64,000 nucleotides of DNA from assembly GCA_963703315.1 (NCBI GenBank), contig OY969811.1:4000001-4064000 (forward strand). Direction: 5' to 3'. The notes beneath the pieces are model-generated. The model ran no database searches. It saw nothing but the letters and a program-made list of their open reading frames with translations, and was not told the origin of the DNA. Source of the stretch: an uncultured cyanobacterium. Lineage in GTDB: Bacteria; Cyanobacteriota; Cyanobacteriia; Pseudanabaenales; Pseudanabaenaceae. The stretch's first letter is position 1. The number at the start of each line of letters is the position of its first letter. Below are positions 3,231 through 60,046 of this stretch, in pieces. The position numbers were made by a program, and so were the translations under genes.

Positions 3231-3863
3231 TACAGTGCTTTGCGCTCAAACCTGAACTAAGAAATTTTTAAAGACATTGCGAAGCAACACTTTTAAAAAT
3301 TTCTGGTGGTTCTTTTGATCGAAAACTGCTGTATGAGTTGTGATAGATGGCAATTTGCCTCATTTATCACAAATTTTAGATCAATACTTGATTGCATCCT
3401 ATAATACTACGGCATGGTACTGTAAATTATGGATTTAATTTTACATATCAAAACCGAAAAGATGGATAGCGGCGCGAAGCGCCGCTATCCATCTTTTCGG
3501 TTTTTAAAACTTACATTGCTATAGGTGCATCAATATAGCAGTTTTCATTTTGCCTATGGAAATCTGTAGCCATTTTTAGTTAATACATCAAATCAAAAAA
3601 AGAGTTATATAGAGTTTTTCAGCCTAGTGAAGTACGGGTTTGTTTCCCCGACGAAGGCGGGGAAACAAACCTATGTACCTCGCTTGCTTGAAAAGAGTTA
3701 TAGCGCAAAGCGCTGTAACTTTTTTTTGGTTTTCTAGCTATAGTTATATTTACAAAATGCTATAAGTACTTCGGCATAATTAAAACCCAAATTTAAAACC
3801 TGTAGCGCACACTGCGCGTGCGCTACAGGTTTTAGGGTTTTATATTTTAAGCCTACTTACTTA
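3231..3863. repeat. Cluster of nested MITE/REP-like hairpin elements
   Basis: GCGAAGC-loop hairpins at ~3262-3302 and 3450-3504; element 3608-3701 inserted at TATA inside the hairpin aaaaaaagagttata..gcgcaaagcgctgtaactttttt; element 3763-3863 with TAAGTA...TACTTA ends. Confidence 0.7.
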
Positions 3864-44829: not shown

Positions 44830-47800
44830 GTGGTTAGCCAAACACAGCAAGCAAATACAGGTTTTGATAGTTCTCTGGATGTCTCAAAGTATGAAGCGAA
44901 GACACAGGAAATTGCGAAGAAAATTTTAAGTGGAACCGAAAAAAGTTCTCTTTGGGCAAAACTATCGCAACTTAAGGATGAATTGCGCCTTGATGACAAG
45001 CTGATGGCTTGGACAATGGAAAATGAAGGCTTGCGAATTCAACTATTCAGATTAATTGATTGCTTGCCCGCTTTGCAGAGCAAAGCCGAAATCGCTAGCC
45101 ATATGCACGAATATTTGGCTAGTAATGCGGTGGATGTGCCAGCATTGCGTGGACTGCTCAATTTTAGTACCGACAATCCCAATTCCCTAACCGCAACGGC
45201 GGCAGCAACGGCGCTCTCGACTTCTGTCGCTACTCTCGCCAAGCGTTATATTTGTGGTGAGAACCTATCAGAAGCGACAAAATCCATTGAGAAACTTAGG
45301 CGCGATCGCTTTGGCTTTACGATGGACTTACTCGGTGAGGCGGTGATTAGCGAGGTAGAAGCAGGTGAATATCTCAATCGCTACATTGCAATGATGGAGG
45401 ATTTGTCTGGTAAAGCAAAGGCTTGGGGCTTAATCGATCAAATCGATAAAGCAGACGGTGAGGAATTGAAGCGGGTTCAGGTTTCCGTGAAATTGAGTGC
45501 TTTCTATTCTCAATTCGATCCTCTCGATCCTGTAAAAACGACAGAGAAAGTCAGCGAACCTGCACGGATTTTATTGCGTAAGGCGAAAGAATTAGGATGT
45601 GGCATCCATTTCGATATGGAGCAGTATGAGTTTAAGTCGCTCACATTACAGATTCTCAAACAAGTTTTAATAGAATCAGAATTTCGCGATCGCACTGACG
45701 TGGGAATTACGCTGCAAGGCTATTTGCGCGATAGTGAGCAGGATTTATTAGAACTAGTCGAATGGGCAAAGCAACGCGGTAAGCCTGTGACTGTGCGTCT
45801 CGTCAAAGGAGCCTATTGGGATCGGGAAACAATTCGTTCCTATCAGCAGGGTTGGGCTATTCCTGTATTCTCTGATAAAGTTTCCACCGATGCCAACTAT
45901 GAGCGCTTGATTCAGATTCTACTGGAAAACCATCAATATCTCTATGCGGCGATCGGTAGTCATAACGCGAGATCTTTAGCTAAGGCGATCGCCATCGTCC
46001 AAACTCTAAATATCCCCAGTCGCGCCTTTGAAGCCCAATGTCTCTATGGTATGGGTGACAAATTTGCCAAGGCGATCGCCGATATGGGGTATCGAGTGCG
46101 CGTGTACTGCCCCTTTGGTGATTTGATTCCTGGAATGTCTTACCTGATTCGCCGCCTGTTAGAGAATACCGCCAATAGTTCCTTTTTGAGAATTAGTGGC
46201 GAAGGTAGCGATATTAGTAAATTAATTGCTGCGCCTGTGATGACGGAACGGGATGCGAATTACAATGGCGCACCTGCTCTGAATATTTTTGATGGCTTTG
46301 TCAATTCTAGCGATCGCGACTATGCGATTAATGAAGAGAGAGAAGCCGCCCAAACTGCTTTACAACAGGTTCGCCGCCAACTTGGGAAAACCTATTTGCC
46401 AATCATCAATGGTCAAGCGGTAGAAACAGAAACCTATATCGAATCTGTTAATCCTGCCAACTCTTCGCAAGTAGTCGGCAAGATCGGGCTAGCCAGCATT
46501 GACCAAGCCGAAGCAGCCGTGAAGTCAGCAAAATCTGCCTTTGCATCATGGAAGAAACTCAGCGCTAAACAACGGGGTGATATTCTCCGCAAAGCTGCTG
46601 ACATCATGGAAGAGAAGCGCGAAGAATTAATTGCGTGGATTTGCTGGGAAGTTGCTAAACCGATCCGTGAAGGTGATGGCGAAGTTTCCGAAGCGATCGA
46701 TTTCTGCCGTTACTATGCCAAAGAAATGGAACGCCTTGAATCGGGTGTACAGCGCAATCTGCCGGGGGAAGACAATACTTACATCTATCAACCTCGCGGC
46801 GTAGTTGTGGTGATTTCGCCTTGGAACTTTCCCTTTGCGATCGCCTTGGGTATGAGTGTCGCTGCGATCGCCGCAGGTAACACCGTCATTCTCAAACCCG
46901 CCGAACAGTCCTCGGTAATTGGTGCAAAAATCGCTGAAGTTCTCCAAGCCGCAGGGTTACCCACAGGCGTATTCACCTATCTTCCTGCGAAAGGCTCGAC
47001 CGTTGGTTCACACTTAGTCAAACATCCCGATGTGCATCTGATTGCTTTCACAGGTTCTCAACAAGTCGGCTGCCAGATCGTCACCGAAGCCTCGATCCTG
47101 CGTCCTAAGCAAAAACACATGAAGCGCGTCATTGCGGAAATGGGCGGCAAAAATGGCATCATCATCGATGAGAGCGCTGACCTCGATCAAGCCGTCGTGG
47201 GCGTAATGAATTCTGCCTTTGGTTTCGCTGGTCAGAAATGTTCCGCTTGTTCGAGAGCGATCGTTCTTGCTCCTGTTTATGACAACTTCATGGAGCGATT
47301 GGTGGAAGCCACACGTTCCCTCATTGTCGGTGAAGCTCACCTTCCTGACACCAAACTCAGCGCTGTGATTGATGCTGCGGCTCAACGGAATATCCAGAAC
47401 TACATCGCTAAAGGTAAGGAAACTGCGACATTAGCCTATGAAGGAGAAGTTCCTAATCATGGTTTTTATGTCAGTCCCACTATTTTTGGTGATGTCGATC
47501 CTAATAGTGCGATCGCCCAAGAGGAAATTTTTGGACCTGTACTGGCGGTAATCAAGGCACAGAGTTTTGATGAGGCATTGGCGATCGCGAATGGTACAAA
47601 CTTCGCACTTACGGGCGGTTTATATTCGCGCACTCCTTCCCATATCGAACGCGCCTACCGCGAGTTTGAAGTGGGCAATCTCTACATCAATCGCGGCATC
47701 ACTGGCGCATTGGTAGATCGCCATCCCTTTGGTGGTTTCAAACTAAGCGGTATCGGTTCCAAAGCTGGCGGACGCGATTATCTATTGCAGTTCTTAGAGC

Positions 47801-47862
47801 CAAGGTCAATCACCGAAAACACACAGCGTCAAGGTTTTGCGCCTCTTGATGGGATTGAGTAA
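44830..47862 (+). CDS. putA: Bifunctional proline dehydrogenase / P5C dehydrogenase
   Basis: DLLGE, VRLVKGAYWD and YLIRRLLEN (PRODH); ISPWNFP, FTGS, EMGGKN, GQKCSA and EEIFGP (ALDH). Confidence 0.95.
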   Translation: MVSQTQQANTGFDSSLDVSKYEAKTQEIAKKILSGTEKSSLWAKLSQLKDELRLDDKLMAWTMENEGLRIQLFRLIDCLPALQSKAEIASHMHEYLASNAVDVPALRGLLNFSTDNPNSLTATAAATALSTSVATLAKRYICGENLSEATKSIEKLRRDRFGFTMDLLGEAVISEVEAGEYLNRYIAMMEDLSGKAKAWGLIDQIDKADGEELKRVQVSVKLSAFYSQFDPLDPVKTTEKVSEPARILLRKAKELGCGIHFDMEQYEFKSLTLQILKQVLIESEFRDRTDVGITLQGYLRDSEQDLLELVEWAKQRGKPVTVRLVKGAYWDRETIRSYQQGWAIPVFSDKVSTDANYERLIQILLENHQYLYAAIGSHNARSLAKAIAIVQTLNIPSRAFEAQCLYGMGDKFAKAIADMGYRVRVYCPFGDLIPGMSYLIRRLLENTANSSFLRISGEGSDISKLIAAPVMTERDANYNGAPALNIFDGFVNSSDRDYAINEEREAAQTALQQVRRQLGKTYLPIINGQAVETETYIESVNPANSSQVVGKIGLASIDQAEAAVKSAKSAFASWKKLSAKQRGDILRKAADIMEEKREELIAWICWEVAKPIREGDGEVSEAIDFCRYYAKEMERLESGVQRNLPGEDNTYIYQPRGVVVVISPWNFPFAIALGMSVAAIAAGNTVILKPAEQSSVIGAKIAEVLQAAGLPTGVFTYLPAKGSTVGSHLVKHPDVHLIAFTGSQQVGCQIVTEASILRPKQKHMKRVIAEMGGKNGIIIDESADLDQAVVGVMNSAFGFAGQKCSACSRAIVLAPVYDNFMERLVEATRSLIVGEAHLPDTKLSAVIDAAAQRNIQNYIAKGKETATLAYEGEVPNHGFYVSPTIFGDVDPNSAIAQEEIFGPVLAVIKAQSFDEALAIANGTNFALTGGLYSRTPSHIERAYREFEVGNLYINRGITGALVDRHPFGGFKLSGIGSKAGGRDYLLQFLEPRSITENTQRQGFAPLDGIE

Positions 47863-47863
47863 A

Positions 47864-47898
47864 CATAAAAAAGGGGGCTATATGCCCCTTCTTTTATG
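47864..47898 (+). terminator. Intrinsic terminator after putA
   Basis: GC-rich stem ggggc-tatat-gcccc followed by a T-rich tail. Confidence 0.6.
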
Positions 47899-47956: not shown

Positions 47957-48736
47957 ATGCCATATCCTACTCAATCCGAGACAGAAGAAGCACTAATTAG
48001 TTTGATATATTTCCATGGCGGCTCAGATTTTAGTATTAAATGTTCAGATACATATCGACCATTAGCCAACTATTTTCAATTGACTGAAAAGGAAAGACAA
48101 ATACTTAGGACATCTGAAGGAAATGAAAGGAAACGCAAATGGGACAGTATAGTGTGCTTTGCTAGAAGAAAACTTAAAGACTCTGGCTATCTTTCTTCTA
48201 ATTCCTCAAGAAGCATTTGGCAATTATCAAGTTCAGGCATTACTGCTGCTGAAAAGGTTTCGCTCAATTATAAGGAATTACAAAATGGTTTAAATACAAA
48301 TAGGTCAAAACAAATAATAGTTGAACCTAAATTACCTGATCAACTTCAACCTAGTTCTTCATCAGAGCCTGCTCAAAATACCTTTTCTGTAACTGAAGGT
48401 AGGGAAAAGCTGGCTATTCACAAGGAGCGTGAACGTAATCGTAAAATTATTGAGCAGAAGAAAAAAAGGATTTTAAGTGAAACAGGGAAATTAATTTGTG
48501 AGGTATGTGAATTTGATTTTGAAAGTCGATATGGTGATTTGGGAAATGGGTTCTGTGAGGTTCATCATAAAAATCCTCTAGCTAAAGTTGACAACGAAAC
48601 TCAAACAAGTTTGGAAGACTTGGCTATTGTATGCGCTAACTGTCATAGAATGATTCATCACAGTCAATGCATTCAACCTACTATGATGAGTATTGAGCAG
48701 CTTAAAAGCTTAATAGAAAATAAAAAAGTAGCTTAG
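47957..48736 (+). CDS. Winged-helix (Mrr-N-like) + HNH endonuclease, possible modification-dependent restriction enzyme
   Basis: W...V.FARR.L...GYL....R.IWQLS..G N-domain; CEVC..F...YG..G..F.EVHH..P...DL..VCANCHRMIH. ATG at 47957 preferred over the TTG at 47837. Confidence 0.82.
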   Translation: MPYPTQSETEEALISLIYFHGGSDFSIKCSDTYRPLANYFQLTEKERQILRTSEGNERKRKWDSIVCFARRKLKDSGYLSSNSSRSIWQLSSSGITAAEKVSLNYKELQNGLNTNRSKQIIVEPKLPDQLQPSSSSEPAQNTFSVTEGREKLAIHKERERNRKIIEQKKKRILSETGKLICEVCEFDFESRYGDLGNGFCEVHHKNPLAKVDNETQTSLEDLAIVCANCHRMIHHSQCIQPTMMSIEQLKSLIENKKVA

Positions 48737-48870
48737 GCAATGCATTAAGGATCACAAATAAACTTAACATTAACCTCAATCTTTCTATTAAAGACCAATC
48801 TAGTAAGGACAAGAAGCCCGTTGTTCTTTGGGATATACTTGATAAATGCTGTATCGCATCGCCTAAACCT

Positions 48871-49329
48871 ATGCCCCAGACTATTGAGCAAAAATCCACG
48901 CTATACGATCGCGATCTTAATTTGTGGTTAGAAGAGGCGATCGCAAAATTAAAAACTGGTGATTTTCAAAATCTAGATGTCGAAAACTTAATTGAGGAGT
49001 TAGAGGGTTTGGCGGGTAGAGATCGGCGCGAATTAGAGTCACGTTTGACTAGATTGATTGAACATATCCTCAAGCGTTGTTATGTCAACCTACCTGAATG
49101 TTATCGAGGTTGGGAGTTAACAATCATCGGACAAAGAAACGAGATTAAAAAAATCATTAAACAGTCTCCTAGCCTAAAACGCCACATAATCTCAGTGTTT
49201 GATGAATTGTTTAATGACGCACTAGAAATCGTACAAACAGAATATGAAAATACGATTTTTCCTGAGACATGGCAATTTACCTATGAGATTCACTTGCTGT
49301 TAAATACTAATTTTTGGAAAAAATCTTAA
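48871..49329 (+). CDS. DUF29-family protein
   Basis: LYDRD..LW......LK...F..LD.ENLIEELE.L....RREL.SRL..L..H.LK..W..TI..QR..I.....SPSL. Confidence 0.92.
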   Translation: MPQTIEQKSTLYDRDLNLWLEEAIAKLKTGDFQNLDVENLIEELEGLAGRDRRELESRLTRLIEHILKRCYVNLPECYRGWELTIIGQRNEIKKIIKQSPSLKRHIISVFDELFNDALEIVQTEYENTIFPETWQFTYEIHLLLNTNFWKKS

Positions 49330-49496
49330 ACCTTGATGGATGATGTATCGCATCGCCTAAACCTATGCCCCAGACTATCGAGCAAAAAACAGGGCTATAC
49401 GATCGCGATCGCAATTTGTGGTTAGAAGAGGCGATCACCAAAAAAGCACTAAACTTAAATTTTAAAAAAAGCATTTGGAAAACTATTGATATTTGC

Positions 49497-50330
49497 ATGG
49501 ATAAACAACAAAGAATTGCTCAAGCTATAAAGGATGTCATATCTAAAATGATGGATCGGGTAATGGATCGTGTTCTAATTACTGATCCTTTTATCAAAGA
49601 AAATCATCGAGCAAACAAACCACTGTACGCAGCGTTAGTTCCTGATGAAATTTTTAAAGGTTCACATTTTGAGAGAAGATTTGTAACTCCATTTGGTCTT
49701 GTATGGGAAAAGTTAGCTCAAGTTGTTGCCCTAGAAGCTTATGGCAATTGCCAAATGGGGTATACAATTAGTGGTACAGTTGGGCAAGAGAGTCTGAGAA
49801 GAATTCAAGAAGTATTAAATAAATTAGAACATAGCAAAGGAAAAAACAAAGTCAAACCTAATTGGAATGAAGAATTACAATATATTCAAGAAGGCGGTGG
49901 TAACCAGATTCCAGTAAGCGTAGTTTGTGATATCTTTATTCAGAACGAAGAAAATGGAAAGCGGTATGCCTTTGAGCTTAAAGCTCCATTACCAAATAGT
50001 GATCAAACAAAAGTAAGCAAAGAGAAGCTATTTAAACTTCTGGCAATGGAACCCAAGTTAGTTGATTACGCATACTTTGCCTTGCCATACAACCCTTATG
50101 GCAAAAAAGAAAACTATAAATGGGACTTTCCGATGCGATGGTTCAATATGCACAAAGATGAATCTGTATTAATAGGCGATGAATTTTGGGATCTGATTGG
50201 AGGGGAAGGCACTTACAACAATTTTATTCAGGAAGTCAATTCATTAGGAAAAGATTACAGAGAACGCATCTATCGTGAATTCTTAGGAATAGAACCACCT
50301 CCAGATTTTGACGAGTATTTGTTGAAGTAG
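49497..50330 (+). CDS. Type II restriction endonuclease, TdeIII-like family
   Basis: FERRFVTPFG..WE.LA, D-x..FELKAPLPNSDQ, ALPYNPYG and LIGDEFWD.IGG motifs; adjacent C5 methyltransferase. The upstream in-frame ATG at 49365 belongs to a DUF29 leader copy. Confidence 0.82.
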   Translation: MDKQQRIAQAIKDVISKMMDRVMDRVLITDPFIKENHRANKPLYAALVPDEIFKGSHFERRFVTPFGLVWEKLAQVVALEAYGNCQMGYTISGTVGQESLRRIQEVLNKLEHSKGKNKVKPNWNEELQYIQEGGGNQIPVSVVCDIFIQNEENGKRYAFELKAPLPNSDQTKVSKEKLFKLLAMEPKLVDYAYFALPYNPYGKKENYKWDFPMRWFNMHKDESVLIGDEFWDLIGGEGTYNNFIQEVNSLGKDYRERIYREFLGIEPPPDFDEYLLK

Positions 50331-50353
50331 AAAAATGTAAGAGGAGATATCAA

Positions 50354-51898
50354 ATGAATAACGCTAAATTTACCTTTATTGATCTTTTTGCTGGAATTGG
50401 CGGCTTTAAAATGGCATTAAGTAATAATGGTGGTCATTGCCTTGGATTTAGTGAAATAGATAAAGATGCAATAAATACATATTGTGACAACTTTCAAGTT
50501 GAATCGAGTTACAACTTAGGGGATATTACAAAAATAAAAGAGTTACCTGAACACGACTTATTAACTGCTGGAGTTCCTTGTCAAAGTTGGTCTATTGCGG
50601 GTAAAAATTTAGGTTTTGATGATGACAGAGGACAGTTATGGAATGACACAATTTACCTACTTCAACAATCTCAGCCCAAAGCCTTTATTTTTGAAAATGT
50701 GAAAGGCTTAGTTGATCCTCGCAATAAAAAAGCTTTATCATACATTTTAGAAAGAATTCAAAAAGCAGGATATTACGCTAATTACTTTGTGATTAACTCA
50801 TTTGATTATGGCGTACCACAAAATAGAATTCGCATATACATAATTGGTTTTAAAGAAAAGAAGTACTTTCAAAGATTTATACTACCTAAATGTATTGACA
50901 AGAAGCTAAAACTTGGCGACATACTAGGTATTGAGCCAAAAAACTCAACAGACAAAAGAATTATGCAAATGGACTTATTTGGAAATGTTGTCGAATCAAA
51001 AACAATGAGTCTTTCAAATACAAATGGGTTTAATGACTATTTTTTATTTAATGATCTTAGGAATGGTCATACAACAATCCATTCATGGGATATTAGTGAA
51101 ACCACTCAGCGACAAAAAGATATTTGTTTGTTATTGCTTAAAAATAGACGTAAAAGCACCTATGGAGAACTTGATGGCAACCCGTTGTCATTAGAACACT
51201 TTCAAAGCCTAGACTCATCCATTAATCAAGATGAAATTAATCAACTGATTGAATTAGAAATCTTAAAGTCCGAAGAGTACAGTTTTACTATAAAAGACTA
51301 TAGTATTAGCAATTTAACAAAAGAAGAAGAAATACTACTTTCATTTGCAAACGATCGCAAAATTATTATTGATAATTTAAATACTCAAAGAATATTTAAA
51401 ACTGAGAAAATATCCATTGAAAAAACTATTGAATCTCTTAAGGGAAAAAGAATTATTGAATGTCATGAGGTTCGTTATGATTTTAAAAATACTAAGATAA
51501 GCACAGGATTATTTGGAGTGAATCGCATATTTTTACCAAGTTCTGACATTTTCCCAACTTTGGTGGCAAGTGACACAAATGATTTCATAACTTTAAAAAC
51601 TATAGAAGCCTCAAATCATGAGGAATTTAAAAATAAATTTATCCAAGAAATTTATAAGCCTAAAGCATTTAGAAAGATTACTAAAAGTGAAGCTTGTTTA
51701 ATACAGGGATTCCCTAAAGATTTTAAGTTGCCAGAATCAAGAGCAAAATGGATGAAGTTAATCGGTAATAGCGTTTCAGTTCCTGTAATCGATAAGTTAT
51801 GCAAAGCAATTATTGAAACTGGTGTATTTGAAAATAGGCAAACTATTAGCTTGGACAGTATCAATGATGAGAAATTAGTTATTTCTCTTTGTGCTTAG
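50354..51898 (+). CDS. DNA (cytosine-5)-methyltransferase
   Basis: Motifs FIDLFAGIGG, GVPCQ, ENVKGL, PQNRIR, QGFP and IGNSV; RBS gaggag. Confidence 0.95.
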   Translation: MNNAKFTFIDLFAGIGGFKMALSNNGGHCLGFSEIDKDAINTYCDNFQVESSYNLGDITKIKELPEHDLLTAGVPCQSWSIAGKNLGFDDDRGQLWNDTIYLLQQSQPKAFIFENVKGLVDPRNKKALSYILERIQKAGYYANYFVINSFDYGVPQNRIRIYIIGFKEKKYFQRFILPKCIDKKLKLGDILGIEPKNSTDKRIMQMDLFGNVVESKTMSLSNTNGFNDYFLFNDLRNGHTTIHSWDISETTQRQKDICLLLLKNRRKSTYGELDGNPLSLEHFQSLDSSINQDEINQLIELEILKSEEYSFTIKDYSISNLTKEEEILLSFANDRKIIIDNLNTQRIFKTEKISIEKTIESLKGKRIIECHEVRYDFKNTKISTGLFGVNRIFLPSSDIFPTLVASDTNDFITLKTIEASNHEEFKNKFIQEIYKPKAFRKITKSEACLIQGFPKDFKLPESRAKWMKLIGNSVSVPVIDKLCKAIIETGVFENRQTISLDSINDEKLVISLCA

Positions 51899-51927
51899 CA
51901 TCTTTTTAAATAAGTAGACAAAAAATT

Positions 51928-51993
51928 GTGATCAAAACTCAAATTTTAGAAGCAATCAAACAAATGCCGAATAGCGATCGCCTAAACCTATGA
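51928..51993 (+). pseudogene. 5' stub of a small antitoxin-like gene truncated at a HIP1 site
   Basis: GTG-IKTQILEAIKQMPNSDR, with the join to the repeat at GCGATCGC 51974-51981. Confidence 0.45.
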
Positions 51994-52313
51994 CTAAACC
52001 TATTGAACAAAAAATAAAATCACTCGCTCGTGCAGACGTTATGCAAACGCTCTCCATGCATCGCCATGAACTAAAAAGACTCGGCGTAAAATCTTTGCGA
52101 CTATTTGGCTCTGTCGCAAGAGATGAGGCAAGACCTGATAGCGATATTGATTTCTTAGTTGAGTTTGTTAACGATCCCTCATTCTTTGAACTATTTGAAG
52201 TGCAATATTTTCTTGAAGATTTATTCCATTGTAAAATTGATTTAGGAATGGAAGAATCATTAAAAGAACATTTAAGAGAGCCAGTACTCAAGGATGTGAT
52301 CCATGCCCTCTAG
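51990..52313 (+). CDS. MNT (MntA-like) antitoxin
   Basis: GVKSL.LFGSVARDEARPDSDIDFLVEF..LEDLF..KIDL. Confidence 0.9.
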   Translation: MTKPIEQKIKSLARADVMQTLSMHRHELKRLGVKSLRLFGSVARDEARPDSDIDFLVEFVNDPSFFELFEVQYFLEDLFHCKIDLGMEESLKEHLREPVLKDVIHAL

Positions 52314-52644
52314 AGACTGGCAACTAAGAATCGCAGATATTCTGCAAGCTGTTCAAGATATTGAGCAATTCACACAGGAGATGACCTTTGAAGAATTTAG
52401 CAATAACAAGATGGTTGTCCAATCCGTACTTTACAACTTCGTGATTATTGGTGAAGCATCCGCTAACATACCTGATGAAATCCAATCACTCGATCCCACA
52501 ATTCCTTGGCGTAAAATGAGCGATATGCGTAACGTGATGGCTCATGAGTATTTTCAAGTAAATCTTTCTATCGTTTGGCAAACAATTCACAGAAATTTAC
52601 CACCAATTTTACCAAAACTGGAAAATCTCATAGAGAATTCATGA
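52303..52644 (+). CDS. HEPN (HepT/DUF86) ribonuclease toxin
   Basis: IIGEA..IPW.KM..MRNVMAHEYF.V...IVW (Rx4HxY motif). Confidence 0.92.
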   Translation: MPSRDWQLRIADILQAVQDIEQFTQEMTFEEFSNNKMVVQSVLYNFVIIGEASANIPDEIQSLDPTIPWRKMSDMRNVMAHEYFQVNLSIVWQTIHRNLPPILPKLENLIENS

Positions 52645-52868
52645 TGCTAAACCTATACCCCAGACAATTGATCAAAAAACAACGCTGTGCGATCGCGATC
52701 GCAATTTGTGGTTAGGAGAAGCGAATCTCTGGGACAAGAGCGCTATATGCTCCTTACATTTTGACACTTTAACGTACCAAAAATGATACAATAATAAAAT
52801 CAAATTTAAGTACTCACTTATTTACCACTTGATTTCTATCTTTTGTGAGCTTCTGCTGTAATTTTCCT

Positions 52869-53225
52869 ATGAGCAATATTAAGAGAATTAAAGCAAGCTT
52901 TTTCAAAACCGAATCTGGTAAAGAACCTGTTAGGGATTGGCTGATGACTTTATCGAAAGAAGATAGACAAAAAATAGGAGAAGATATTAAAACAATTGAG
53001 TTTGGATTTCCTATCGGAATGCCTACCTGTCGCCCTATGGGTAAAGGATTGTATGAGGTGCGTACTAACCTTGAGAATACGATTACCAGAGTTTTGTTTT
53101 GTGTGGAAGGAGAGCAAATGATTCTTTTACACGGGTTTACTAAGAAAACGCAAAAAACACCTAAGGAAGATTTGAATTTAGCCATCAAGCGACAAACTGA
53201 GTTTAAGAACAAAATTAGGAGTTAA
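52869..53225 (+). CDS. RelE/HigB-like (phage Gp49-type) toxin
   Basis: F.TESG.EPVRDWL..GLYEVRTNL....RVLF..ILLHGF.KKTQKTP..DL.LA..R. ATG at 52869 preferred. Confidence 0.88.
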   Translation: MSNIKRIKASFFKTESGKEPVRDWLMTLSKEDRQKIGEDIKTIEFGFPIGMPTCRPMGKGLYEVRTNLENTITRVLFCVEGEQMILLHGFTKKTQKTPKEDLNLAIKRQTEFKNKIRS

Positions 53226-53227
53226 CC

Positions 53228-53521
53228 ATGTCTAACAATTGTCATTTAGGTTCTGCTTTTGATGACTTTCTAGAACAGGAAGGAATTTTAAATGAAGTAA
53301 CAGAAATTGCGCTGAAGCGGGTCTTGGCTTGGCAAGTTGAGCAAGCAATGAAGGAACGGGGCTTAACTAAGTCCAAGATGGCTAAGTCTATGCAAACTAG
53401 CCGTGCGGCGCTAGATAGACTTCTTGATCCTGAGTATGATTCTGTAACTCTACGAACTTTAGATAAGGCAGCTAGAGCAGTGGGTAAAAGAATTAAGATA
53501 GATTTGGTTGATGTTATCTAA
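53228..53521 (+). CDS. XRE-family HTH antitoxin
   Basis: H.GS.FDDFL.QEG..ALKRVLAWQ..MAKSMQTSRAALDRLLDP...VTL.TL.KAA. Confidence 0.88.
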   Translation: MSNNCHLGSAFDDFLEQEGILNEVTEIALKRVLAWQVEQAMKERGLTKSKMAKSMQTSRAALDRLLDPEYDSVTLRTLDKAARAVGKRIKIDLVDVI

Positions 53522-53816
53522 ATGATTCGATTCCCTTAATAAAACCCATGCCCCATACTATTGAGCAAAAAATAACCCTGTGCGATCGCGATCGCAGTTT
53601 GTGGTTATCGAAGAGGCGATCGCGAAGTTAAAAGCTGGTGATTTTCAAAATCTCGATGTCGAAAACGAGGTAGGTCAATTAAAAATTCTCAACGATCGCA
53701 CCCGAGCCTCAGCAAACTAGCAAATAACTTTTTCCTAACCACAGAGTTGTCACTTACCAATATTTCATGTAAGAATTCATGGGATATTTTGTGCTTGTGA
53801 CAAGGGATTAGGAATT

Positions 53817-55313
53817 ATGCGTTTAGGACAATTGCTCGCGTTAGCAGGGTATCAAAATTCTCAGCCTGAATTAGATGGGCTAGAAGTAAAGCGTGTAATT
53901 ACCGATTCGCGGGCTTGCCAAGATGGGGACTTGTTTATCGGCATGACGGGTACACAGGTAGATGGCGGCAAATTTGCACCACAGGCGATCGCACAGGGCG
54001 CGATCGCGGCGATTATTTCTCATGAGGCTTATGCAAATTTGACGATTAAGGACAAAGCGATCGCCGTTGATGATGTGGTTGTCGCTTGCAGCAAATTGGC
54101 GACCGCATTTTATGACTACCCTGCTCAAAAGCTAAAACTGGTGGGCGTGACGGGGACTAATGGTAAAACCACCACCACCCACTTGATCGAGTTTTTATTG
54201 CAAACTCAGTATGCAGCCGCTTTGTTTGGGACTTTGTATACACGCTGGGCAGGCTATTCCAAAACTGCGAGTCATACCACCCCCTTTGCGGTGGACTTAC
54301 AGGCACAACTAGCTGAGGCGATCGCGGCGGGGTGCGATGTGGGCTTGATGGAGGTTAGCTCCCATGCTTTAGACCAACGGCGTGTGTTAGGTTGCCCCTT
54401 TGAGGTGGCAGTATTTACCAACTTAACCCAAGACCATTTGGACTACCACAAAGACCTAGAGTCTTATTTTCAGGCAAAGGCTTTGCTGTTTAGCGATACC
54501 TATTTGCAAGGTCGTGCCATTATTAATTTGGATGATCCCTTTGGACAGAGACTAGTACAGAGCCTTACGGACAAACCAGTTTGGACTTACAGCATTAGCA
54601 ATTCTCAAGCCGATTTTTATACCGAGAATTTGACCTATTTACCTAATGGCGCAACAGGTATTTTACACACGCCACAGGGGGGGATCACTTTTAATTCACC
54701 TTTAGTCGGTCGCTTTAATGTCGAGAATATCTTGGCAGCGATCGCTACGGCTTTGCATCTAGGGCTGAGCTTGGAAGAAGTAATTAGCCGTTTACCACAA
54801 TTTAAGAGCGTGCCTGGGCGTGTAGAACGGGTGCAGGTTAGCGATGATCAAGATGTCACGGTGGTGGTGGACTACGCCCATACTCCTGACAGTCTCGAAA
54901 ATTTACTCAAGGCAATGCGCCCCTTTACCCAACGTGACTTAATTTGTGTATTTGGCTGTGGCGGCGATCGCGATCGCACTAAGCGTCCGCTTATGGGTGG
55001 GATCACCGCTAGACTTGCTGATCGCGTTTATGTCACTTCTGATAATCCCCGTACCGAAGATCCCCAACGCATCCTTGATGATGTCGTGGTGGGCGTAATG
55101 GCGGATATTGGCGACAAACCCTTGACTATTGAGGGCGATCGCCGTAAATGTATTCAAACTGCTATTGCTGAAGCTCAATCAGGGGATACAATCCTGATTG
55201 CGGGGAAAGGACATGAAGACTATCAAATTATCGGACATGAGAAAATCCATTTTGATGATCGAGAGGAGGCGCATTTAGCTTTAATCAATCGTCAAAGTTC
55301 AAATCTTCGTTAG
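53817..55313 (+). CDS. murE: UDP-N-acetylmuramoyl-L-alanyl-D-glutamate--2,6-diaminopimelate ligase
   Basis: GVTGTNGKTT, MEVSSHAL, TNLTQDHLDYH, DYAHTPD, SDNPR and GKGHE motifs. Confidence 0.96.
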   Translation: MRLGQLLALAGYQNSQPELDGLEVKRVITDSRACQDGDLFIGMTGTQVDGGKFAPQAIAQGAIAAIISHEAYANLTIKDKAIAVDDVVVACSKLATAFYDYPAQKLKLVGVTGTNGKTTTTHLIEFLLQTQYAAALFGTLYTRWAGYSKTASHTTPFAVDLQAQLAEAIAAGCDVGLMEVSSHALDQRRVLGCPFEVAVFTNLTQDHLDYHKDLESYFQAKALLFSDTYLQGRAIINLDDPFGQRLVQSLTDKPVWTYSISNSQADFYTENLTYLPNGATGILHTPQGGITFNSPLVGRFNVENILAAIATALHLGLSLEEVISRLPQFKSVPGRVERVQVSDDQDVTVVVDYAHTPDSLENLLKAMRPFTQRDLICVFGCGGDRDRTKRPLMGGITARLADRVYVTSDNPRTEDPQRILDDVVVGVMADIGDKPLTIEGDRRKCIQTAIAEAQSGDTILIAGKGHEDYQIIGHEKIHFDDREEAHLALINRQSSNLR

Positions 55314-59037: not shown

Positions 59038-59143
59038 GTTTCTGCGACTTAATGGCGGCGCGAAGCGCCGCTATAGCTCTTTATGTAGGTACAGCCAAGT
59101 CGGTATACATACCTTTAGTTAGATTCGCATTTTGAAATACTTT

Positions 59144-59474: not shown

Positions 59475-59716
59475 ATTACAACCCAAGAATTGATTGGCGG
59501 CGCGGAGCGCCGCCAATCAATTCTTGGGTTGTATGTTTTAGTACACTTGGCGACAGATGTAGCTGCAACTAATAAGCGATCGCATATTTGCTGTAAAGTT
59601 CTCGCCTCATCATCGGAGATATGCATAGCAAAATATTCAGAAATTCCCTCGGCGTAGACTACCCACATTTTTTGTTGCATCGCTAAACCTGCCTCAGTTA
59701 AGACTGCGTAAGTCCC
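59453..59716 (-). pseudogene. 3' fragment of a MarR-family regulator
   Basis: GTYAVLTEAGLAMQQKMWVVYAEGISEYFA.HISDDEARTLQQI; the N-terminal HTH is absent. Confidence 0.65.
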
Positions 59717-59858: not shown

Positions 59859-60046
59859 AACCCCTTACGAGATTGGGGTTTTATAGCTGTCGCCATTCTT
59901 GTTAGAACATAAAACCCAAATAGTGTGAGGCGGCGCGAAGCGTCGCCTCACACTATTTGGGTTTTGAAGCTATAGCTACCTCTTTGTACTGGTATAGCCA
60001 AATAGTCATCCATACCTTTAGCTAGATTCACATCTTGAAATACTTT

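Follow-up and report, generated by a model that had tools for sequence, protein, structure and literature searches.

The sedentary integron arrays of Vibrio are reportedly biobanks of defence genes, and it is to such arrays that we liken the locus presented here, a row of restriction and toxin-antitoxin (TA) genes located behind putA in an uncultured member of the Pseudanabaenaceae. The row lies in a stretch of 64,000 nucleotides (contig OY969811.1, positions 4,000,001 to 4,064,000; hereafter the window, whose numbering and plus strand apply below unless a chromosomal position, C1, is given), and its genes are separated by direct copies of a repeat, R. We found that R is a joint of ~75 bp, which spans the stretch just upstream of a DUF29 start codon together with the ~24 codons that open this gene. 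The host chromosome is closed (4.57 Mb, 99.67% complete) and contains 8231 sites (1.8 per kb) of the highly iterated palindrome HIP1. In the following, G000 denotes the genome of the window, other G numbers the genomes of relatives, and L numbers the fetched loci.

The passages of Cury et al. (2016; PMC4889954) on sedentary integrons and on attC-site clusters without an integron integrase (CALIN) describe defence and TA cassettes which occupy a set place in the chromosome, share one orientation, vary in order and have behind them a repeat that often starts from the stop codon. In Pseudanabaena, a freshwater cyanobacterial genus, the cassettes are likewise co-oriented and variable in order, and the repeat travels with the upstream gene. 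However, neither an integron integrase (IntI) nor attI was found here, the repeat is the head of a coding gene and not an attC hairpin, and the cassettes carry 5′ heads of their own. The array works like an integron, yet with respect to integrase and attC it is not one. The restriction-modification (RM) insertions of Furuta et al. (2010; PMC2853133) are characterized, in the portion of that paper drawn upon, as RM genes between direct repeats of >30 bp, devoid of a mobility gene and found mostly in competent species, a Microcystis case included. They are recognized by the presence of restriction and modification genes, an insert under 20 kb, direct repeats over 30 bp, no mobility gene and an empty site in a relative; here, an RM pair lies between R2 and R4 with no mobility gene, and many relatives possess the site without RM. 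Such an insertion is the likely birth step of a cassette, but the described cases are single insertions, whereas in our locus the target has been reused often, HIP1 sets one of the ends, and units change places and pass between genomes throughout the genus. The dif modules of Acinetobacter, as far as the relevant part of PMC13141974 goes, are also TA-rich and shuffled without an integrase of their own. In contrast to R, which is 75 bp long, direct and chromosomal, their pdif sites are 11-6-11 XerC/D sites that alternate in orientation and reside on plasmids, and comparison by eye of R with a table of pdif sites revealed a likeness of no more than three bases per arm. The cyanobacterial dif could not be predicted (PMC3025954); thus, a divergent Xer site is possible. 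As for HIP1 itself, which according to excerpts of PMC13756078 has had no agreed function for three decades, the HIP1-bounded excision in smtB cited therein has joins at GCGATCGC, as does our locus, and homologous HIP1 is described as aiding integration (Elhai, 2015, PMC4390886; Kamoku and Nielsen, 10.1101/2024.09.10.611283). The parts of these reports considered here concern single events or engineered plasmids and describe no natural cassette array. A literature search, which left subscription papers and supplements aside, found no description of arrays with DUF29 heads or HIP1 joints.

The array is real and has been shuffled. Between the end of putA (47862) and the start of murE (53817), G000 encodes an Mrr_N-HNH nuclease, DUF29, a TdeIII-type restriction endonuclease (REase) with a C5 methyltransferase (MTase), an MNT-HEPN pair and a RelE-XRE pair, i.e., three units between four full joints, plus the nuclease at position 0 behind a partly repeated terminator. 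By a profile search, the four full R copies were placed in the same orientation at 48863–48941 (R1), 49357–49435 (R2), 52647–52724 (R4) and 53541–53620 (R5), and they constitute the top four matches in the whole 4.57-Mb genome (E ≤ 5e-20). A sequence-only reading of the window had counted five repeats in one orientation, of which copy 3 turned out to be just a 36-nt stub (51982–52017; E 0.15 with the R profile, or 52 nt at 81% identity and E 7e-6 by blastn). The same reading let the repeat bracket the modules, and its gene calls are borne out by Pfam, yet no full joint separates the RM pair from MNT-HEPN; moreover, it overlooked the nuclease cassette (47957–48736), as well as the nature of the ~50 nt behind copy 2, which are the 3′ end of DUF29. 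It was right that copy 1 alone runs on as a whole DUF29 gene (48871–49329; PF01724, E 9e-39), the source of the joint and itself a cassette, in which the HIP1 at 48937–48944 marks the usual right breakpoint of truncated copies. It was also right that copy 3 starts at a HIP1 (51974) truncating a small antitoxin-like gene. Of copies 2 and 4, said to break off at HIP1, copy 4 ends inside the HIP1 position and copy 2 a few bases past a one-off HIP1.

Joint R2 (49332–49440 with a duplicated stretch of upstream sequence) represents a DUF29 gene that has lost everything between HIP1 and its final 45 nt; the 3′ remnant (49433–49486) reaches a local score of 45 vs. 26 for shuffles, and 52–77 in relatives. 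It is followed by the TdeIII-family type II REase gene (49497–50330; PF09520, E 8e-74), before which G002 and G034 have kept the whole DUF29, and by the C5 MTase gene (50354–51898; PF00145, PADLOC MTase_II). Next comes the 5′ stub of the antitoxin-like gene (51928–51981; weak VapB15 match, E 0.008), cut at its own HIP1 (51974–51981) and linked by copy 3 (51977–52017) to the start of MNT. Copy 3 lacks the HIP1-bearing core and now serves as the start of the MNT gene, and fused starts of this kind were seen in five relatives. The head of the antitoxin-like gene, ~55 nt long, is a second recurrent connector fragment in the arrays of many relatives; it ends at the HIP1 of its own gene, which stands whole before mazF in some of them. 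The MNT antitoxin (51990–52313) and HEPN/HepT toxin (52303–52644) genes, forming one module (51990–52644), are trailed by R4 with two gained HIP1 sites (52689 and 52695), and the RelE/Gp49-like toxin (52869–53225) and XRE antitoxin (53228–53521) genes (module 52869–53521), all recognized by Pfam, by R5 (53541–53666), the distal end of the array, which extends 117 nt into a DUF29 frameshifted by a 2-nt insertion. The HNH, REase, MTase and TA genes have a G+C content of 31–38% and no HIP1 at all, while each flank has 48% and 8–9 HIP1 sites.

A 34-nt core pattern of R matched 43 of the 48 genus genomes (0/48 for the reversed control), and a looser pattern 21 of 301 genomes of the class, all within one family. 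Public records with the R core were mostly from Pseudanabaena among the at least 50 stretches listed, and their titles include P. biceps PCC 7429, P. minima Chao 2107 and P. cinerea FACHB-1277. The pattern had no exact match in viral contigs, and as regards plasmids, two carried only DUF29 paralogues (72–76%).

For the comparison across the genus, we fetched the region behind putA and the surroundings of stray R matches. The 40 putA loci comprise 27 with two or more R copies, eight with one and five with none, the sequence of three of the latter reaching no further than 700 bases past putA. Among the cargo are TdeIII, HindVP, type I and type IIG restriction systems (RM types I, II, IIG and IV in all), other defence genes (AbiP2-like reverse transcriptase, Uzume-like nuclease, AAA-ATPase pairs) and TA genes (TacAT, MazF, VapBC, HicA, ParE-like and DUF433/DUF5615); 13 of the 32 proteins scanned had no PADLOC match. 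Individual examples are the AbiP2-like reverse transcriptase of L032 (1422–3044), the Uzume-like GIY-YIG protein of L034 (1158–1967), a type I REase as well as a type IIG RM gene that is split (L090, 4940–7345; L082), and several cargo proteins match neither Pfam nor PADLOC. RM stands ahead of RelE-XRE in two genomes (G000 and G022) and behind it in three (G002, G026 and G034), and both orders were found for all three module pairs (RM/RelE-XRE 2:3, RM/MNT-HEPN 2:1, MNT-HEPN/RelE-XRE 2:1). Among 133 joints, the 110 with a named tail and head form 42 different tail-by-head pairings. The right flank of the array is variable as well (lpxA in seven loci; msrP, GUN4, GGDEF and others elsewhere). As the sequence-only reading had anticipated, cargo and order thus vary across relatives, joins remain at the repeat and truncated copies cluster at the DUF29 HIP1; its putA–murE frame did not hold, as murE follows the array in no fetched relative. 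The cargo is recent across genomes, third-position divergence from G000 being lower in cargo than in putA in 55 of 56 comparisons (e.g., 0.10 for TdeIII vs. 0.29), suggesting exchange between species. The same cassettes occur behind a sigma-factor gene in G005, where they entered via a DUF29 paralogue. The corresponding locus of G000 (C1 3233.6–3235.4 kb) has a DUF29 paralogue split by an insertion sequence, with a second DUF29 head behind, at the place that bears the full array in G005. In L084 (G064) and L093 (G006), a stray R lies 30–60 kb from the array in the opposite orientation with the same gene behind it, which suggests an inversion that broke the array.

The right ends of the joints are focused at HIP1. 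Nine loci belonging to other paralogues were set aside beforehand, together with a duplicate and a locus from another family; 155 matches to the DUF29 head then comprised 38 full copies, two at contig ends, one beside masked bases and 114 truncated ones. We determined that 79 of these 114 end at gene nucleotides 65–80, a window of 16 of the 459 nt that surrounds the only exact HIP1 of DUF29 (nt 67–74). When junctions were merged by downstream sequence into 32 classes, 15 ended there (p 8e-14 under a uniform null), as did 15 of the 23 classes limited to nt 60–200 (p 1e-9). The proposal that HIP1 provides the breakpoints stands for the right end of the joint, while the left ends scatter over ~76 nt. 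R often begins at the stop codon of the upstream gene. Within R, variants of the 5′ half go together with the upstream cassette (z up to 9 or more), and this link weakens along the core; no variant is strongly linked to the downstream cassette (z at most 3) until HIP1, where downstream linkage begins. A cassette is therefore built as in integrons, from a head, cargo and an R at its end. A core variant of several bases, present in 17 copies, has at least five tails on one side and six heads on the other, a pattern better explained by exchange to either side of it than by a single fixed cut, unless the variant arose repeatedly; exchange seems to be spread across the R core.

The non-coding copies of R differ from the coding ones in their HIP1 content. 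Two near-sites have become HIP1 in 45 and 23 of 91 non-coding copies (25 and 15 of 41 genomes, respectively) and in none of 35 coding copies, as is expected because both changes alter the protein. Outside these gains and one linked base, other core positions mostly change in only 0–13% of non-coding copies, and it is this contrast that carries the signal. Near-HIP1 words turned perfect, some overlapping a HIP1, can be seen in the window at 49405, 52689–52702 and 53582–53595, and in relatives; at the second site, where two bases change, intermediates are almost absent. The first gain is of the kind predicted by Elhai's model in the part of PMC4390886 that sets it out, although a single allele may have been multiplied by gene conversion.

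Taken together, we consider it probable that host recombination, without an integrase belonging to the array, builds and reorders the latter, HIP1 joins creating the cassettes and homologous recombination shuffling them. In a rare step, incoming DNA would be joined at the DUF29 HIP1 and at or shortly before the DUF29 start, so that the interval would be duplicated and the cargo left between two R copies, i.e., a target duplication. Frequently thereafter, any two R copies may recombine by homology within the ~75-bp joint, or over up to ~190 bp between intact DUF29 heads, and the partner may be DNA of another species taken up by transformation; ComEC and DprA are intact in G000. Cassettes would in this way be added, deleted and reordered, perhaps with stimulation by HIP1, homologous sites of which raise integration in Synechococcus PCC 7002 according to the relevant passages of 10.1101/2024.09.10.611283. 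Intact DUF29 genes would serve as templates keeping the core uniform, while non-coding copies gain HIP1, as partly seen above.

Several points weigh against this mechanism. A joint of 75 bp is short, the PCC 7002 work, in the same passages, having used arms of at least 250 bp. As many as 17 of the 32 junction classes end away from HIP1; the left ends are not focused at HIP1 but fall between −76 and 0, most commonly at −6 to −8; the junction survey misses very short stubs; and the p-values are overstated, since the 16-nt window was set after inspection and kin share junctions. The 17-copy core variant, which creates a HIP1, may have had several origins, the likeness of R copies is scarcely greater within genomes (0.85) than between them (0.84), and the AT richness of the cargo somewhat depresses its third-position divergence. 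RecA was not identified, no RecA search having been made, and neither was a CGATCG methylase in G000, which has two further C5 methylases. Finally, additional joins at R turned up among metagenome contigs, several of them in a single run, but no excised circle or within-strain rearrangement was seen among them, the contigs of a run containing 96% of the window's words hold no joint between R copies, and the joints in other runs are best read as mixed or other strains. Contig depth over DUF29-RM was lower in run X1 (6–8 vs. 10–12), which is not readable as excision.

HIP1-ended spacers are not confined to the putA locus. A self-comparison of G000 yielded 43 local repeat clusters, about ten of which are rows of TA pairs with locus-specific spacers containing or ending in HIP1, and for two other HIP1 arrays the genes at the flanks could be placed in relatives. 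At the rnc locus, inspection by eye revealed an exact or one-off HIP1 ~50–65 nt after the stop codon in 13 of 21 rows, followed by varied cargo, and in G061 the first spacer joined to the last without the three TA pairs of G000, i.e., an empty site. In G000 this locus (C1 442.9–445.4 kb; L119, with L124–L143 in relatives) has HIP1-rich spacers between its TA pairs. Elsewhere on C1, TA or accessory genes form additional rows, every one of which has a repeated spacer peculiar to it that contains HIP1 or ends in it; these rows lie at 61.3–62.8, 1538.2–1540.3, 1596.2–1598.5, 1637–1641, 2189.6–2193.5, 2731–2748, 2807.3–2808.9, 3467.9–3472.9, 3586–3588, 3671–3672.7 and 4510–4522 kb.

The sharpness of the right ends at HIP1 and the attC-like linkage of R to the upstream cassette would also fit a recombinase acting in trans at or next to HIP1, either a genus-wide XerC-like protein, as XerCD acts on dif modules, or a cutter of methylated HIP1. 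G000 indeed encodes a 507-aa XerC-like protein, its only tyrosine-recombinase match apart from a TetR protein with a weak integrase-like tail, and a site-specific recombination at HIP1 in PCC 7002 is cited in the passages used of PMC4390886; the near-invariance of the core even in non-coding copies and the HIP1 after the stop codon at the rnc locus fit as well. The XerC-like protein (L206, 4115–5638) has two integrase-domain matches and proteins of similar length were matched genus-wide, while the TetR-family regulator (L207, 4086–5333) is fused to a weak XerC-like C-terminal domain. Yet, core variants are unlinked to both flanks, all R copies are direct, unlike the alternating pdif, and the only dif-like feature, a weak dyad with a 7-nt spacer, is destroyed by HIP1 gain in those 23 of the 91 non-coding copies. 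The spacers of other G000 arrays are unrelated save for HIP1, which argues against one long binding site, and the conserved core can be explained by the DUF29 coding constraint together with gene conversion; we regard a trans-acting recombinase as unlikely, though a good deal less so than the following readings. The array could be seen as a CALIN in which R is a divergent attC whose integron integrase is encoded elsewhere or has been lost: R stands behind the upstream gene, often from its stop codon, and IntI scored over the cut-off in 23 of 48 genus genomes and is broken in several others. Short words near both R ends also resemble the R″ and R′ of the attC consensus. However, closed G000 has no IntI (best TIGR02249 score 32 bits vs. 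a cut-off of 265), 13 of the 27 multi-R arrays are in genomes without IntI over the cut-off (four of those 13 with IntI fragments), and R was absent from the seven IntI loci examined, two of which have unrelated end-to-end hairpin repeats of their own. Full integrases with ~85-bp attC-like repeats are present in L109 (G063) and L114 (G022). Four R copies gave no end-to-end bottom-strand hairpin of the attC type; they fold inconsistently and mostly by local HIP1 pairing, while three control repeats from IntI loci form one long stem each; their fold z-scores overlap those of R and only the shape differs. Rfam returned nothing in eight loci but missed the attC-like controls likewise and is hence uninformative. 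As R moreover encodes DUF29 residues and the cassettes begin at HIP1, at least 10 nt beyond the R′-like word, a CALIN is extremely improbable. No serine resolvase was found in G000 and no integrase among 56 proteins scanned from arrays and flanks, so that the proposal of integrase-free stacking of cassettes at the repeat is supported, as an inference still, given the XerC-like recombinase encoded elsewhere. An integrative element or prophage using the gene as its att site finds no support, with no element integrase among these 56 proteins and the pattern absent from viral contigs.

Two further readings start from DUF29 itself, which has over 20 paralogues in G000, some of them tandem and several just behind housekeeping genes. 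According to one, tandem DUF29 duplications simply decayed, cargo entered once and the differences are lineage-specific losses. The joints are indeed what is left of DUF29 genes, a simple internal deletion accounts for the REase head, and a whole DUF29 precedes many cargo genes; however, loss cannot invert the order, three module pairs occur in both orders, the tail-head pairings are numerous and the cargo is younger than putA between genomes. Such a passive history is already largely refuted by the order conflicts and we hold it for very unlikely, while the decayed duplications named as an alternative by the sequence-only reading describe the origin of the copies and are not a rival. According to the other, DUF29 is the mobiliser, a selfish element whose internally deleted copies retain the ends acted upon, in line with its many paralogues, one cassette with both DUF29 ends and a constant N-terminus combined with a variable C-terminus. 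The DUF29 genes of arrays (48871–49329; L048, L034, L037, L044) are near-identical in their first ~48 residues, have at least three divergent C-terminal types and are often tandem. A model of DUF29 is all-helical (pLDDT 84; an earlier one with pLDDT 49 was unusable) and has one clear fold match, 3FCN (Z 11.5, rmsd 5.6, 132 aligned), itself of unknown function; there was no recombinase fold among 50 VIA rows, no sequence match in PDB and nothing at E ≤ 0.001 by Foldseek, and Atlas returned DUF29 only. Since many arrays have no intact DUF29 and the REase head alone keeps the 3′ end, other heads being at shuffle level, a mobilising role appears most unlikely. By the same comparison, a miniature inverted-repeat transposable element-like origin of every cassette head from an internally deleted DUF29 gene was borne out for the REase head only.

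As for the left border, putA (44830–47862; Pfam PutA_N/Pro_dh/Aldedh) is the conserved anchor and R follows it in 35 of 40 loci. Its 3′ terminator-like hairpin (47867–47894) is partly repeated just before R1, from about 48814, as revealed by post-putA alignments; loose contig ends fall at 48814 too. The position-0 nuclease (Pfam; PADLOC type IV REase, E 7e-8) is present in G020, G024 and G005 as well. On the right, murE (53817–55313) is the flank only in G000 and is unlinked to or far from putA in relatives. Promoter-like sites are at chance level (19 vs. 19.3). Long intergenic palindromes, perfect or nearly so, which belong to a dispersed family lie at 59053–59071, 59477–59533 and 59910–59965.

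The putA locus offers a natural HIP1 substrate for which dozens of alleles exist, the breakpoint is mapped and hosts are in culture, so that HIP1-dependent capture and shuffling are directly testable. Its non-coding R copies record the creation of HIP1 from near-sites once the coding constraint is lifted and may serve as a test bed for Elhai's model of methylation-biased repair, and the array is, like integrons, a source of candidate anti-phage genes. More tentatively, and with somewhat less than even confidence, we propose a general integrase-free cassette system of Pseudanabaena with HIP1 as the joining signal, in which any locus could turn into an array through duplication of a stretch ending in HIP1, such as the gene head at putA or the HIP1-rich spacers at other loci, and a host pathway would be dedicated to methylated HIP1. 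If true, this would represent an equivalent of the integron built on a genome-wide palindrome and give HIP1 a natural function, with defence genes captured, stacked and reordered between species.

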